Below are positions 1 through 33,598 of a DNA stretch of 33,598 bases, one piece after another; the first letter of the stretch is position 1; every line of letters begins with the position of its first letter. Source of the DNA: a virus; IMG/VR virus record IMGVR_UViG_3300045988_096981, positions 1-33,598 of that record; one strand, written 5' to 3'. The translations under genes were made by a program, and so were the position numbers. The notes under the pieces were generated by a model, which ran no database searches, was not told where the DNA came from, and saw only the letters and a list, made by a program, of their open reading frames with translations.

Positions 1-55
1 TTATTATTTACAGATTTTGAAGTTTCTTGAATTCCTGATTTTGAAGTTTCTTGAA
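1..55. repeat. 55-nt sequence identical to 33544-33598. This is the end overlap of a circular contig, so true genome length is about 33543 bp.
   Basis: Compared base by base: TTATTATTTACAGATTTTGAAGTTTCTTGAATTCCTGATTTTGAAGTTTCTTGAA occurs at both ends. An ORF reads continuously through the join. Confidence 0.95.
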
Positions 56-377
56 TTCCTGATTTTGAAGTTTCTTGAACCGCAAATCTGTGATGTTTAG
101 CTTTTGTTGTAGTGCCTTGAATATAGGTGTTTTTTACTTCAACAATACCCGCGTTCACAAGGTGTTGTAGTGCTTTATTTACTTGATAGTAGCTTAATCC
201 CGTGTGTTCTTTCCAGTCCTTAGCTGTGTACCAAGTAAAGCCATCTCCTCGTTTAGCTATTTGGTGTAAGTAAACTAACTTGTTTAATACGATTGCTTCG
301 TTTATTCCGAACTCGCATGCAATATCAACATTGTATCCAGCGCTAACGCCAGATTTTAGAATGTCATTTACGTTCAT
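1..377 (-). CDS. Replication initiator / replisome organizer (DnaD-like, winged-helix N-terminus), N-terminal part. The ORF runs off the left edge and continues at 33543 down to 33228, 230 aa in total.
   Basis: ATG at 377-375 lies 6 nt after a GGAGAG RBS (389-384). My translation is MNVNDILKSGVSAGYNVDIACEFGINEAIVLNKLVYLHQIAKRGDGFTWYTAKDWKEHTGLSYYQVNKALQHLVNAGIVEVKN..., followed by 3 x QETSKSGI. It stays in frame across the junction (377+316 nt = 231 codons). Confidence 0.8.
   Translation of the reverse strand, partial: MNVNDILKSGVSAGYNVDIACEFGINEAIVLNKLVYLHQIAKRGDGFTWYTAKDWKEHTGLSYYQVNKALQHLVNAGIVEVKNTYIQGTTTKAKHHRFAVQETSKSGIQETSKSGIQETSKSVNN
13..79. repeat. Tandem 24-nt repeat GATTTTGAAGTTTCTTGAATTCCT, 2 full copies plus a 19-nt partial copy. 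Candidate origin iterons inside the replication gene.
   Basis: Copies lie at 13-36, 37-60 and 61-79. On the minus strand they encode a QETSKSGI x3 linker between the two domains of the initiator. Confidence 0.85.
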
Positions 378-605: not shown

Positions 606-635
606 AAAGAAAACCCCAGTCAAAAACGACCGAGG
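606..635 (-). terminator. Promoter-proximal intrinsic terminator / attenuator hairpin in the leader of the replication operon
   Basis: Minus-strand RNA reads CCUCGGUC-GUUUUU-GACUGGGG followed by UUUUCUUUG. The 8-bp stem needs two G:U pairs, so it forms only on the minus-strand transcript. Confidence 0.5.
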
Positions 636-658
636 TTATCAAATGCGTATCTGATATG
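631..658. promoter_or_regulatory. Palindromic operator-like site, copy 1 (core TTATCAAA-N6-TCTGATAA). It is the inverted-repeat partner of 30846-30873.
   Basis: 25 of 26 nt match the reverse complement of 30848-30873. The site begins about 8 nt downstream of the -10 at 669-664. Confidence 0.6.
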
Positions 659-22538: not shown

Positions 22539-22566
22539 AAAAAAACACGAGACAAGTAGTCCCGTG
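22539..22566 (-). terminator. Rho-independent terminator after the 304-aa ORF
   Basis: Minus-strand RNA reads CACGGGAC-UACUU-GUCUCGUG followed by U7. The internal mismatch is G:U only on the minus strand. Confidence 0.75.
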
Positions 22567-22608
22567 TTAATTTAATTATATTATTATATAGACAGGTTGT
22601 CTAGAGTT

Positions 22609-30249: not shown

Positions 30250-30476
30250 TGTATTAACTCCTCTCTAGCACAGATGTTTACAACTTCGTCCTCAATTCCG
30301 TCACAATCTGGATTTGGACAATAAAACTCAGGTTCACCCTGACAACCACACCATTCAGCTTCTCTGCCTGAACAGCAAGGTTGAATTACTTCTAGGTTGT
30401 CGTGGTTGCAGTACCACTCATTATCAAAGAAATCAAAGCGATAACTCGCTCTGACCTGCTTTACGTTAATTTTCAT
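30237..30476 (-). CDS. Cys-rich small protein (79 aa from the ATG at 30476; the ORF track extends it to 30644)
   Basis: MKINVKQVRASYRFDFFDNEWYCNHD...CCSGREAEWCGCQGEPEFYCPNPDCDG carries 9 Cys. A GAGAG RBS is present, and the upstream extension lacks coding character. Confidence 0.55.
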   Translation of the reverse strand: MKINVKQVRASYRFDFFDNEWYCNHDNLEVIQPCCSGREAEWCGCQGEPEFYCPNPDCDGIEDEVVNICAREELIQCLA

Positions 30477-30477
30477 A

Positions 30478-30506
30478 TTTACTCTCAATCTGCCATTTGA
30501 TATAAT
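30478..30506 (+). promoter_or_regulatory. Plus-strand extended -10 promoter (TTTACT-17 nt incl. TGn-TATAAT), antisense to the early operon
   Basis: -35 at 30478-30483, TG at 30498-30499, and TATAAT at 30501-30506. Confidence 0.45.
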
Positions 30507-30514
30507 GGCTTTGT

Positions 30515-30540
30515 AGCCGCTCTTTTGAGCGGTTTTTGCT
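30515..30540 (+). terminator. Plus-strand intrinsic terminator about 10 nt downstream of the plus-strand promoter
   Basis: AGCCGCTC-TTTT-GAGCGGTT followed by TTTGCTTT. The T-run is present only on the plus strand. Confidence 0.55.
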
Positions 30541-30845
30541 TTATACTGCCCACTTTTCAGCGCAGGTGTGGGAGACCTGTAGTGAGCAGTAGCGGACGTT
30601 TGAAACACAGGAGTTTTACTTTTAATAAACCCAAAAATAAACACTCAAACGTCCAGCAAAGGAGCTGGCGATCGTCAAACCGCCCATTACTGCCCACTAA
30701 TTCCAAATTGTTAAGATACCAACTTCTACACGTGTTACGCCTGAACCTTCGAGCAATCTGTCACGCTTGTATAATTTTCGTCGTACGCTCTTTTATGGTG
30801 TCGCTTACGTAATCGTAATAGCACAGCTTGTTAATTCTGCACGAG

Positions 30846-30873
30846 ATTATCAGATACGCGTTTGATAACCTCG
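30846..30873. promoter_or_regulatory. Palindromic operator-like site, copy 2 (TTATCAGA-TACGCG-TTTGATAA plus CCTCG)
   Basis: 30848-30873 is the reverse complement of 631-656 with one mismatch. Confidence 0.6.
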
Positions 30874-30879
30874 TGGAAA

Positions 30880-30908
30880 TTAAAAAACCACAGCGATTTG
30901 CTGTGGTT
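30880..30908 (-). terminator. Rho-independent terminator directly after the tRNA-derived attP core
   Basis: Minus strand: AACCACAGC-AAATC-GCTGTGGTT followed by TTTTAATTT. Confidence 0.75.
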
Positions 30909-30921
30909 AAAACCCAAATTA

Positions 30922-30966
30922 TGGCGCCCCGAGTAGGATTCGAACCTACGACCTTAGGCTTAGAAG
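30922..30966 (-). other. attP core: the 3' portion of a tRNA-Arg(UCU) gene, from anticodon loop through T-arm to acceptor 3' strand and CCA, with no 5' half
   Basis: Minus strand reads CTTCTAA-GCCTA-AGGTC-GTAGG-TTCGAAT-CCTAC-TCGGGGC-G-CCA. The upstream sequence has no GCCCCGA acceptor strand or D-arm. The element lies 127 nt from the integrase stop. Confidence 0.75.
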
Positions 30967-31052
30967 TCCTCAGGTTGCCAATCAGATTATAACATAAACT
31001 TATCGCTTTAGTACAAATCAGAGGGTGTAAAAGTTCTATTGAATATGCTCTT

Positions 31053-31081
31053 ATATTAGCACACCCAAATTAAAAAGTCAA
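31053..31081 (-). promoter_or_regulatory. Second copy of the TTGACT-17 nt-TAATAT promoter, pointing into the attP core
   Basis: -35 at 31081-31076 and -10 at 31058-31053. It shares the 12-mer CTTATATTAGCA (31050-31061) with 661-672. Confidence 0.6.
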
Positions 31082-31092
31082 TAGGCTCATGC

Positions 31093-31950
31093 TTAAATTG
31101 GGCGTAAAGTCATAAATTTGTCGAATTGCTCCCTTATATATTTAGGTGGGACGTGTAGATAGTTTTGCGTTGTATTCACGTTTTCATGACCTAGACTTAT
31201 TTGAACTGTTTTTATATCAGCACCGTTTAAGTACATGTTTGTAGCGAACGAATAGCGTGCTATATGAGGGCTTACGTGATAACCATACTTCTCAAACACC
31301 TTTAGCCAACGCGCTATTGTGTCGGTGTCGACTGGCTTCGACTGGTCGACATTTTTATGTATTTGTTTTCTTTTAATAAGATAGCCATCGATGCTATTTT
31401 TGATAATAAACTCTCTCACTAGCTTCATAATTTCAGGGTGAACCAAAACTTCACGACATTTACCACCAGCTTTACCTTTTCCTCTTACAGATATGTAATT
31501 ATCGTAGATATCTTGCGTGCGTATTCTCACCAACTCAGAAACTCGAAGACCTGAGCCAAACATTAGATAGATAATTATTTTCATTTGCTCATCAACTTCA
31601 CCTAGGACTTTGCAGACTATATCTTCAGGCACTACTGTTTTGTCTACTTTTTCTGGTGTTATAGTTTTGATTTTTTGCCACCTAAACCCTAGAGTGATTT
31701 CAAAGTCGCCTTCTAGACATCTGAAAAAGCTCCTTAAAACTGTTATCAAGGCGGCAAGACTGTTTCTTTTTAAGTTGCTTTTTGAGGCTAAATACTCACG
31801 AATATGCTTCAACTGAATTTCTTCAATTTTCTGTACGCCTTTTGTTCTCAAAAACTTATCGAAGTCATTTAGCCACACTTTTCTGTCATAGACGGTCTTA
31901 TCTGATAGACGGTCTACATCACGAATAAAAGATAAATACTCATCAATCAC
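31093..31950 (-). CDS. int: Tyrosine recombinase / phage integrase (285 aa from GTG 31950; the ORF track extends it to a TTG at 32004)
   Basis: Catalytic motifs are GLRVSELVRIR, HIARYSFAT (H-x-x-R) and LGHENVNTTQNYLHV (H...Y). A GGGAGGAG RBS lies 6 nt before the GTG. Confidence 0.9.
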   Translation of the reverse strand: MIDEYLSFIRDVDRLSDKTVYDRKVWLNDFDKFLRTKGVQKIEEIQLKHIREYLASKSNLKRNSLAALITVLRSFFRCLEGDFEITLGFRWQKIKTITPEKVDKTVVPEDIVCKVLGEVDEQMKIIIYLMFGSGLRVSELVRIRTQDIYDNYISVRGKGKAGGKCREVLVHPEIMKLVREFIIKNSIDGYLIKRKQIHKNVDQSKPVDTDTIARWLKVFEKYGYHVSPHIARYSFATNMYLNGADIKTVQISLGHENVNTTQNYLHVPPKYIREQFDKFMTLRPI

Positions 31951-32120
31951 AGAGCACTCCTCCCACAAAAAAATTAATATTTTGTAGGATTTTGAGGTGC
32001 CCAACTAGTGTTGCTTTCAGACCACCCACACGGTCGTCAACTCGGCAGTAGATATGGCTAATTTCTTATTCAATTTTGCCACGTCTAGCCGTGTCTGCAT
32101 AGTGTAAAATTCACAAAGTC

Positions 32121-33023
32121 CTACGTGTCGAACCTGCTATTTCTAGCTGGTTCAATCACCTTAAGCTCCCTAAATTCAAAATGGTAAGATGTACCAACTT
32201 TACAACCGTACCTGTTGCGGTTTTTCTCTAAAGTAACGATGATATCATTTGGAAAATCTTTCATATTTCGTTCAACCATTAAGACGATATCCGCGTCCTG
32301 AGCAATATAGCTCGAACCTCGCAAATCGTTTATTCCAGTCTTTCGTGTATGGCTGTCTGGTGCTTTTCGTGTATGACTGATTAGAATGATAGGAATCTGA
32401 TGCCTGATTGCGTTCTTTTTTAATTCTTTTGTTATATTTCCCAATTCTTCGGCGACGTTTTGGATTTCCCGCGTAAAGTAATGAAGGTGATCAATCACGA
32501 CCAGTTCACAGTTGGCTTCTTCTTTGGCTTTTCGAACCAATCCGTCGATTGATTGCCAGCTTAATTCATCGTTTTTTTGGAAAAATATGCCAGCTGCACA
32601 CTTTTCGTATTCTGTTTCGCCAAGGATTTTTCTAAATCGCACACCTGCTTCGCCGTGAGTCATTTCCAAAGTAACGAATAAAACAGATTTGTTTTGCTTA
32701 GCTACATTTGCCGCGATATTCATGCTTAGGGCTGTTTTACCGTTACTAGTGGCTCCACCGATAACAGTAAGCTCTCCTGGCGCTAATCCCATTGTCATGC
32801 GGTCAAGTACCCAGTTCCCTGTTCTTAATCCGATGATTTTGCCCCAGTTTTTCATGCGCTCTTCGATTTCTTCGTGATAGTCTGCCATCATCGTGAATTC
32901 GAGCTCTGCTGCTGCGGATTTTGCAGTTTTAGCAGATGCTCCAAGTACGTATTCGTAAAGGTCTAGCTGTTCGTTCGACTTCAGTGTGTCGATTTTTGAT
33001 TTAAGATAGGTTAAATTGTCCAC
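32121..33023 (-). CDS. DnaB-like replicative helicase, RecA-type C-terminal domain only (300 aa from GTG 33023; the ORF track extends it to 33104)
   Basis: Motifs are TGNWVLDRMTMGLAPGELTVIGGATSNGKTAL (Walker A), VLFVTLEM and LVVIDHLHY (Walker B-like). A GGGAG RBS lies 7 nt before the GTG. Confidence 0.85.
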   Translation of the reverse strand: MDNLTYLKSKIDTLKSNEQLDLYEYVLGASAKTAKSAAAELEFTMMADYHEEIEERMKNWGKIIGLRTGNWVLDRMTMGLAPGELTVIGGATSNGKTALSMNIAANVAKQNKSVLFVTLEMTHGEAGVRFRKILGETEYEKCAAGIFFQKNDELSWQSIDGLVRKAKEEANCELVVIDHLHYFTREIQNVAEELGNITKELKKNAIRHQIPIILISHTRKAPDSHTRKTGINDLRGSSYIAQDADIVLMVERNMKDFPNDIIVTLEKNRNRYGCKVGTSYHFEFRELKVIEPARNSRFDT

Positions 33024-33240
33024 GTAATATCTCCCTGATTTTTGATTTATGCCAATTTGCAGTGTTTTCGACTGTTTCGAATAGCTCTTCGTATTTGTCG
33101 ACATTGTGATTGATGTTAGATATGCTCTGTAACGTCGTGTAATCGTTTCTGAGCGTCTTTACGGCTTCATTGTGGTATTTTATCGTTTCCGCAACAAAAC
33201 GCTCTGAGGCGTCCTCTAAATCGATTTTTAAGCCATCCAC
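33001..33240 (-). CDS. Hypothetical helical protein (79 aa, GTG start) between the initiator and the helicase; possible helicase loader/adaptor
   Basis: A GGGAGA RBS lies 6 nt before the GTG at 33240. The ORF overlaps both neighbours. Confidence 0.55.
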   Translation of the reverse strand: MDGLKIDLEDASERFVAETIKYHNEAVKTLRNDYTTLQSISNINHNVDKYEELFETVENTANWHKSKIREILRGQFNLS

Positions 33241-33598
33241 GATCCATCTCCCATTAACTCATCTAGGTCTGCCATGCCTTCATGTTGCTTTTTTCGCTTC
33301 GATAGCATGTTGTCTATTGTAGAGGCTCTGAGCAGATAGTCGCTTTTTAATTCGTTAATCTTCTTTGAGTGCCAATCATCTTCAACGAGTACGTCTAGTG
33401 CTTTACCGATTTCTTCTAACGAGAACTTCTTCAAGGTTTCTTTGTAACCACGTGGAAGTATTCTGAAATTACGTTTGGTTTTTTCGTTTAGTAGGTCTAA
33501 TAGTTTTTTATCAACTTCACTATTACTTATTATATTCTTAGCGTTATTATTTACAGATTTTGAAGTTTCTTGAATTCCTGATTTTGAAGTTTCTTGAA
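33228..33598 (-). CDS. Replication initiator / replisome organizer, C-terminal part (continuation of 377-1; 33544-33598 duplicates 1-55)
   Basis: ...KTKRNFRILPRGYKETLKKFSLEEIGKALDVLVEDDWHSKKINELKSDYLLRASTIDNMLS resembles the conserved phage replication-protein C-terminal (DnaD-like) domain. Confidence 0.8.
   Translation of the reverse strand, partial: QETSKSGIQETSKSVNNNAKNIISNSEVDKKLLDLLNEKTKRNFRILPRGYKETLKKFSLEEIGKALDVLVEDDWHSKKINELKSDYLLRASTIDNMLSKRKKQHEGMADLDELMGDGSWMA
33544..33598. repeat. Right-hand copy of the 55-nt end overlap
   Basis: Identical to 1-55. Confidence 0.95.

Follow-up and report, generated by a model that had tools for sequence, protein, structure and literature searches.

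Matched complementary sites heading the replication and early operons of oral Saccharibacteria phages: a candidate type-specific antisense RNA pairing module

Why does a small phage keep two inverted copies of one short sequence, the first at the start of its replication operon and the second in front of its early genes? The question is raised by the window, i.e. the whole stretch of 33,598 nt analysed here, which comes from a phage of human-oral Saccharibacteria. Saccharibacteria are ultra-small epibiotic bacteria of the Candidate Phyla Radiation (CPR), and to our knowledge nothing is known about lysogeny control in their phages. An earlier sequence-only reading had described positions 631-656 (CGAGGTTATCAAATGCGTATCTGATA) and 30848-30873 (TATCAGATACGCGTTTGATAACCTCG) as a 26-nt inverted repeat and proposed either paired operators or crossover sites. 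The repeat itself is confirmed: the two segments are reverse complements at 25 of 26 positions, and the pair is the top inverted repeat in the window. It is also unique, with exactly two matches of a 22-nt core at no more than three mismatches in the window and none in 100 shuffles. The two copies are referred to below as S1 and S2.

The two ends of the window are identical over 55 nt (1-55 and 33544-33598) and the record is that of a complete virus with terminal repeats, thus the genome is a circle of 33,543 bp. The end duplication is the assembly overlap of a circular contig, so that the initiator gene with its iterons is divided between the two ends of the window. With few exceptions the genes are on the minus strand, which we call the gene direction. 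The short arc between S1 and S2 crosses the circle junction and measures 3,301 bp, as the earlier estimate of about 3.3 kb had it, and the genes listed there are all present. The initiator, with a DnaD/O-like winged helix, has its 5' part at 1-377 (minus) and continues at 33228-33543 across the junction; 24-nt iterons (1-79) lie inside its gene. The arc further contains a 79-aa ORF, a DnaB-like helicase (32121-33104, minus), a tyrosine integrase (31093-32004, minus), which is the sole recombinase of the genome, and attP (30922-30985, minus). The latter is the 3' half of a tRNA-Arg(UCU), with a partial tRNA match at 30929-30985.

The core was found in IMG/VR contigs, most of them from one study, in contigs of human oral metagenomes and in two Saccharibacteria/Nanosynbacter MAGs. 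A 12-kb megablast query found no match among GenBank phages, and a search for more distant relatives with the first early protein returned only the same narrow phage family. The comparison covers one narrow phage group. Members of the family are integrated in Nanosynbacter-like genomes from the human mouth and carry an integrase and attP, with no recognisable repressor. One relative, G006, is an integrated provirus whose flank (a TPR gene and a tRNA-Thr promoter) matches both MAGs at 78-84%.

S1 is located at the predicted start of the replication-operon transcript. The promoter of this operon, P1 (664-692, minus), has a -35 box TTGACT at 692-687, a 17-nt spacer with a TG and a -10 box TAATAT at 669-664, and it is kept in all relatives. 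The near-consensus promoter proposed earlier, with the first copy at its transcription start, is therefore found again: the homology between S1 and S2 begins 7-8 nt past the -10 box, which is the expected +1 (predicted at about 657), in every sequence type described below. As a transcript, S1 (631-657, minus) would be the first ~26 nt of the P1 RNA, complementary to the loop and 5' arm of S2, and its central 10 nt are type-specific. The last 7 nt of S1, AACCUCG, are the 5' arm of a leader terminator or attenuator (602-637, minus), which consists of a 10-bp hairpin (stem 637-612) and a U-tract (611-602) and whose 3' arm shows changes between G-U and A-U pairs among relatives. The first 62 nt of the P1 transcript are predicted to fold into two adjacent hairpins (-19.1 kcal/mol, z = -4.6). 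Here and below, the promoter and terminator calls are consensus matches only.

The rest of the replication-operon leader (452-601, minus) is conserved in one cassette with P1 and S1, also in phages with different rep genes. This cassette ends exactly at 452, irrespective of the rep module that follows. Autoregulation by Rep was rejected because the cassette is conserved before a different rep module; the iterons are also unrelated to the site. Judged by eye, DnaA, IHF and LexA boxes do not fit either site, and Rfam holds no family that matches S1, S2 or the leaders.

In the gene direction S2 is predicted to form an RNA hairpin (30831-30883, minus). Its 13-bp stem (30840-30875) has a further extension of 7 bp and is closed by a loop of 10 type-specific nt (30853-30862). 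Read as minus-strand RNA, the stem arms are CACGAGGUUAUCA and UGAUAAUCUCGUG, and the extension UUAAUUU/GAAUUAA lengthens the stem to 20 bp. The second copy of the 26-nt repeat is thus only the centre of a longer palindrome. This bears on two earlier statements, that the core is an imperfect palindrome and that it would fold as a 7-bp RNA hairpin. Both hold in part. The core is palindromic in the window phage; however, the palindrome of S2 is far longer, and S1 is not palindromic in types B-D, where AUCA is all that remains of the promoter-side arm and a single-stranded state is predicted. Across types, 4-6 nt of this arm are left in S1. Likewise, the hairpin is 8 bp long at S1 and exists there in the window phage only, while at S2 it is the 13-bp stem. 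Of all the earlier suggestions, the remark on RNA comes nearest to the evidence favoured here.

Between attP and S2 lies an intrinsic terminator (30880-30908, minus), and the repeat copy at 30848-30873 lies 12 nt past the terminator when the latter is delimited as 30908-30886, just as the sequence-only reading had placed it. On the other side of attP, a second promoter, P2 (31053-31081, minus), is a copy of P1 without S1 and is aimed across attP towards S2. When 31021-31083 is compared with 632-694, P2 is seen to be a 71% direct copy of P1 plus S1, in which the S1 part has decayed to 16/26 and complementarity to S2 is lost. No promoter is predicted between the attP-side terminators and S2, and there is no consensus promoter at S2 on either strand.

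The phage family is strongly mosaic, with two rep modules and two integration modules. The integration module of the window uses the 3' half of tRNA-Arg(UCU); the alternative (e.g. in G006 and G010; L030:560-860) uses the 5' half of tRNA-Thr(UGU) and has two terminators where the window has one between attP and S2, so that S2 lies downstream of one or two good terminators. Each module comes with a separate integrase and with a P1-like promoter that faces across attP, and the equivalent promoter of the alternative module, P2', also points at S2. In the prophage, the host tRNA promoter replaces the P1-like promoter ahead of S2 and the early genes. The breakpoint of the integration modules lies ~15 nt beyond S2. 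When the modules are swapped S2 stays on the early-gene side, and arm or core sites of the integrase were therefore rejected as its identity. An additional 3.8-kb NCBI contig (L192, JAFJNK010114742.1) carries a degraded tRNA-Thr module, a variant of the type A S2 and the first early gene. This gene matches the recorded product only when TGA is read as W, which probably reflects a noisy assembly rather than another genetic code.

Directly downstream of S2 follows a structured early-operon leader (30477-30830, minus), about 350 nt of conserved non-coding sequence up to the ATG of the first early gene at 30476. Its consensus structure has 106 pairs, of which 13 show compensatory changes on both sides. 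This shows that the region downstream of S2 functions as RNA in the gene direction, and the structure leaves no room for a promoter between S2 and the first helix. Within this leader AGUGGGCAGUA is present twice, flanking its own complement, which suggests alternative pairings. A search for early-leader sequences that could pair with a freed S2 arm found nothing conserved, and no conserved consequence of S2 opening was seen.

Comparison of the relatives reveals that S1 and S2 change together. Variant sites were found by searches anchored on the flanks and not on the core. Three sequence types (A-C) occur at both sites, and a fourth, D, is seen from S1 only. In the gene direction, type A has the S1 sequence AUAUCAGAUACGCAUUUGAUAACCUCG and the S2 loop AA(C/U)GCGUAUC, type B has AUCAGAUAGCCAAUUGAUAACCUCG and the loop AUCGGCUGUC, and type C has AUCAAAUAUGCGCUAUGAUAACCUCG and the loop UAGCGCAUAUU. 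The S1 centre of type D is GAUAGGUAAU, and the type D contigs end before S2. The types differ in the central 10-11 nt; the S1 and S2 centres of one genome are always complementary. Among the 19 contigs that contain both sites, ten are A/A, eight B/B and one C/C, none is mixed, and the two sites are inverted relative to each other in all 19. The conservation of the sites in related phages, which the earlier reading had named as a check, is thus found, in the form of types. The complementarity is imperfect in the window pair and in the type B pair, both of which have an A-C mismatch, and type B shows a G-U pair in addition.

Could this matching be simple co-inheritance? Types A and B are each found with nearly every combination of rep module, integration module and leader variant, and G002, a type B relative, is 90-100% identical in most genes to the window, which is type A. 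If the types are taken as about equally frequent, chance would produce a match in all of the at least 11 distinct module combinations with a probability of ~0.5^11, a rough figure given that the contigs are related. As the match is kept despite the reassortment of the neighbouring modules, we conclude that it is maintained by selection and not by linkage.

What, then, is being selected? Since all flanking genes lie on the minus strand and the DNA repeat is inverted, the RNAs of S1 and S2 are complementary to each other. Variation between the types coincides exactly with the loop of the S2 hairpin, and the 13-bp stem is constant. In seven distinct variants of this stem, 90 of 91 positions are paired when read as minus-strand RNA. 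Seven of these pairs are G-U; on the opposite strand, or in a DNA dyad, each of the seven becomes an A-C mismatch. Three independent substitutions in the stem keep the pairing and one singleton breaks it. In cofolding calculations cognate S1 and S2 gain a net -5 to -7 kcal/mol, compared with -0.3 to -1.2 for non-cognate pairs, and the cognate complex opens the P1 leader terminator in silico. The compensatory pairs of the leader behind S2, the one-armed S1 that begins at the P1 +1 in every type, and the promoters P2 and P2', which face S2 in both integration modules, likewise speak for RNA. Taken together, these sequence comparisons point to S1 and S2 as the two halves of a type-specific antisense RNA-RNA pairing module, of the kind known from P4 CI and P1/P7 c4. 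We regard this reading as having about an even chance of being correct. Against it weigh the mispairs of the window and type B, the terminators and the lack of a predicted promoter ahead of S2, a position of S1 that would suit a repressor equally well, the failure to find a conserved consequence of S2 opening, and the restriction of the relatives to one narrow group with three types seen at both sites. It makes a prediction for type D, whose S2 loop should be AUUACCUAUC or a transition variant thereof.

Partner sites that are inverted and agree in their centres, as homology of the spacers would demand, also fit a different idea, that of the sequence-only reading, in which S1 and S2 are lox- or FRT-like crossover sites and a tyrosine recombinase inverts the 3.3-kb replication-integrase-attP segment or the other 30 kb. 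S2 does resemble loxP and FRT in having two 13-bp inverted arms around an asymmetric centre and an inverted partner, and a tyrosine recombinase is encoded between the sites. However, the centres of the partners differ inside any 6-8-bp overlap, by 1 nt in the window (A versus G) and by 2 nt in type B; S1 lacks one arm; and identical sites occur with both the tRNA-Arg-type and the tRNA-Thr-type integrase modules, the integrases of which are nearly unrelated (score 25). Heterologous centres, a one-armed S1, independence of the integrase type and the absence of any inverted isoform among the contigs all set the sites apart from loxP and FRT. After an inversion P1 would face the integrase in antisense and the rep operon would be left without a promoter. 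The reading implies reads that join P1 to CCTCGTGGAAATT, with junctions of the form P1...TGATAACCTCGTGGAAATT or GCACGAGAT...CCTCGGTCG. In the assembled contigs of the relatives all of the ~50 S1 and S2 sites have parental flanks, with 0 recombinant junctions. The crossover proposal thus fits poorly with the spacers, the two integrase modules and the intact junctions, and we consider it very improbable.

A real DNA inversion does exist elsewhere in this genome, a point that speaks for the crossover idea in general. The segment 698-1440 is bounded by an inverted repeat (698-722 and 1416-1440, 24/25) that encodes ...DKIDFTTMP... in frame and brackets an expressed C-terminal part of the tail fibre (1067-1416, minus) together with a silent lectin-like cassette (718-1065, plus). 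In contig 097909 (L009) the outer flanks are the same and the inner sequences are swapped, i.e. the tail-fibre segment is exactly inverted. This serves as a positive control, as it demonstrates that inversions are visible in these assemblies. The repeat pair occurs with different cassettes in 9 of 11 relatives and no serine invertase is present; 698-1440 looks like an invertible tail-fibre cassette. With respect to S1 and S2, the motif TTATCAAA resembles the half-sites of Hin/Gin hix sites, and this identity was dropped on account of the spacing (22 bp, not 26 bp) and the lack of an invertase.

The second proposal of the sequence-only reading was that S1 and S2 are operators of a dimeric DNA-binding protein, of phage or host, which would repress P1 and control the early operon. 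Several observations agree with it. The core is palindromic in the window phage, S1 covers +1 to +26 of a strong promoter, which is an ideal position for a repressor, the outer arms TTATCA/TGATAA and CACGAGG/CCTCGTG are the same in every relative, and many small early proteins have no known function. Short dyad-symmetric sites at promoters, occurring as sequence types among related phages, are also what lambdoid CI/Cro operators look like. Unlike these, however, the sites here come with no cognate repressor gene, S1 lacks a half-site, of which only the 4-6 nt mentioned above are left, and it is non-palindromic in types B-D. Furthermore, S1 overlaps a promoter, but none is predicted at S2.

A protein that distinguishes the types should itself vary with them, given that S1 and S2 agree in their centres, but neither an ORF nor a residue follows the type. 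All ORFs of at least 35 aa from 11 whole relatives (some incomplete) were clustered at five identity thresholds, and none of the clusters occurs in all members of one type and only there. Among the 19 near-universal ORF families almost no alignment column separates A from B. The only run of separating columns belongs to a spurious plus-strand ORF that spans S2 itself, and the other columns of this kind are few and isolated or at gaps. A protein touching only the constant arms would leave the co-varying centres unexplained. The earlier statement that no CI/Cro-type gene is recognisable stands: there is no HTH_3 match in six frames of the genome, which also argues against operators, and no DNA-binding family was found among the early proteins. 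Neither a serine recombinase or invertase nor an Xre-type HTH was found in six frames. An Arc/RHH gene at 2063-2254 was considered as partner and rejected; it is the sole RHH gene and lies in a cassette present in only 1 of 10 relatives. What survives of the operator idea is that the sites are a functional pair tied to gene control; the one-armed S1, the promoterless S2 and the want of a co-varying protein weigh against the rest, and we think it unlikely that the sites are operators.

It is also conceivable that S1 and S2 are separate cis elements of RNA or DNA, for instance 5' stabilising or processing hairpins, which never contact each other and are kept alike by a single specific trans factor, which could come from the host or be a very small peptide or an RNA whose gene lies outside the phage. 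Each of them heads a long conserved leader, P1, P2 and P2' share the same initial transcribed sequence, and several contigs are incomplete, so that the factor could be encoded in an unassembled part. However, the two RNAs are complementary and not identical, and one RNA-binding factor would see two different sequences. A third copy of the site was found neither in the phage nor in the two host MAGs, in which S1 and S2 of the prophage are the sole copies, separated by ~30 kb in the single contig that has both. The nearly identical phages G000 and G002 differ in type, which is hard to explain by a host factor. We judge two elements without mutual contact to be quite unlikely, though less so than recombination. 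With no co-varying ORF or residue and no third copy, direct pairing between S1 and S2 is the explanation that remains.

How would the antisense module work? We propose that P1 makes an RNA with S1 as its first ~26 nt, immediately followed by the intrinsic terminator. The majority of P1 transcripts would stop at ~50-55 nt, and some would be extended into rep, helicase and integrase; the short product is predicted from the strong promoter, the 26-nt seed and the intrinsic terminator. S2 would be transcribed by read-through from P2 or, in the prophage, from the host tRNA promoter, a prediction based on P2 read-through and on the co-variation in the leader. The first contacts would be made in the S2 loop, from where the duplex would extend into the arm. 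Two consequences can be envisaged, separately or together. In the first, pairing sequesters AACCUCG, and the replication genes (rep-helicase-integrase) would be read through only when the early RNA bearing S2 is present. In the second, the abundant short P1 RNA would act on early transcripts as an immunity RNA.

Cis-acting antitermination RNAs of the nut or put type were considered for the sites and rejected, as the two RNAs are complementary and not alike and S2 comes after its terminator, not before it. Elsewhere in the genome, the top promoter match (22544-22603, minus; TAGACA-17-TATAAT, 11/12) has a strong terminator (22568-22544) within a few nt. Besides those of P1 and P2 this is a third promoter-proximal terminator, which hints at a genome-wide antitermination control.

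The proposed pairing shares features with several known systems. In the plasmid countertranscripts that act by attenuation (pT181 RNAI, pIP501 RNAIII, pCF10 Anti-Q), antisense contact at a hairpin loop decides whether a leader terminator forms. Their loop sequence sets the specificity group, they are encoded opposite their own target, and pairing favours termination. The phage module resembles them in the loop contact, in the leader terminator before a rep or regulatory gene and in the specificity defined by the loop. In contrast, its partner would act in trans and shares its coding strand, and pairing would take the 5' arm away from the terminator.

Phages P1 and P7 provide a parallel for the types. 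Their heteroimmunity depends on no protein and lies solely in paired changes of the short stretches by which regulator and target are complementary, and the c4 RNA, which is processed from the same operon, blocks icd translation. The immI region, with the c4 antisense RNA and its target sites before icd-ant, was reportedly described by Citron and Schuster (Cell, 1990). Types A-D repeat this pattern of paired changes. Unlike c4, the module described here would use two separate promoters, and its target, a hairpin loop, is remote from any start codon.

The closest precedent for control without a protein repressor is phage P4. Its CI RNA (seqB) has two pairing sites, seqA and seqC, within the replication-operon leader, as summarised in PMC4825925 (and its references 45-47, e.g. 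PMC176756). According to the same source, P4 works without a protein repressor, by a short RNA from the replication-operon leader, its complementary sites are transcribed in the same direction and are hence inverted repeats in the DNA, and control is by transcription termination in the leader (PMC4825925); the phages studied here would be alike in all three respects, the last by prediction. There are differences, however. In P4 all three sites are on one transcript, from which the CI RNA is cut out by processing. Here, an RNA terminated close to its promoter is predicted to carry the seed as its primary 5' end, the partner is a hairpin loop that heads another operon 3.3 kb away, and pairing is predicted to open a terminator and not to create one. 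Unlike in both P4 and P1/P7, the host is a CPR bacterium. Judged by comparative evidence only, the seed at the 5' end, the hairpin partner on a different operon, the predicted relief of termination and the CPR host would be what is new relative to P4 and c4. The prophage Gifsy-1 offers a further likeness in IsrK, where a promoter-proximal terminator yields a short RNA isoform, which acts in trans, and a read-through mRNA (PMC4825925); a short RNA versus a read-through mRNA is also what is predicted for P1. In contrast to the window phage, IsrK acts on its own long isoform, opening the ribosome-binding site, and is presented with neither a distant complementary hairpin nor specificity types (PMC4825925).

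A wider reading can be put forward more tentatively. It can be speculated that these Saccharibacteria phages run the lysis-lysogeny decision and superinfection immunity on RNA alone, with the ~50-nt P1 RNA as the immunity factor and the S2 loop as its target. Types A-D would then be heteroimmunity groups that coexist in the mouth, and the same pairing would license read-through into the replication genes. We consider this full version rather unlikely, and clearly less probable than the pairing itself. If it is true, one RNA duplex would couple early transcription and replication. The pairing module could also serve as a compact orthogonal RNA switch. For the phage family, it would mean a protein-free module that can be reprogrammed by 10 nucleotides, by which small phages manage without a repressor and keep the replication genes silent in the prophage, and the coexistence of close phage relatives in one host population would be explained by their belonging to different specificity types.
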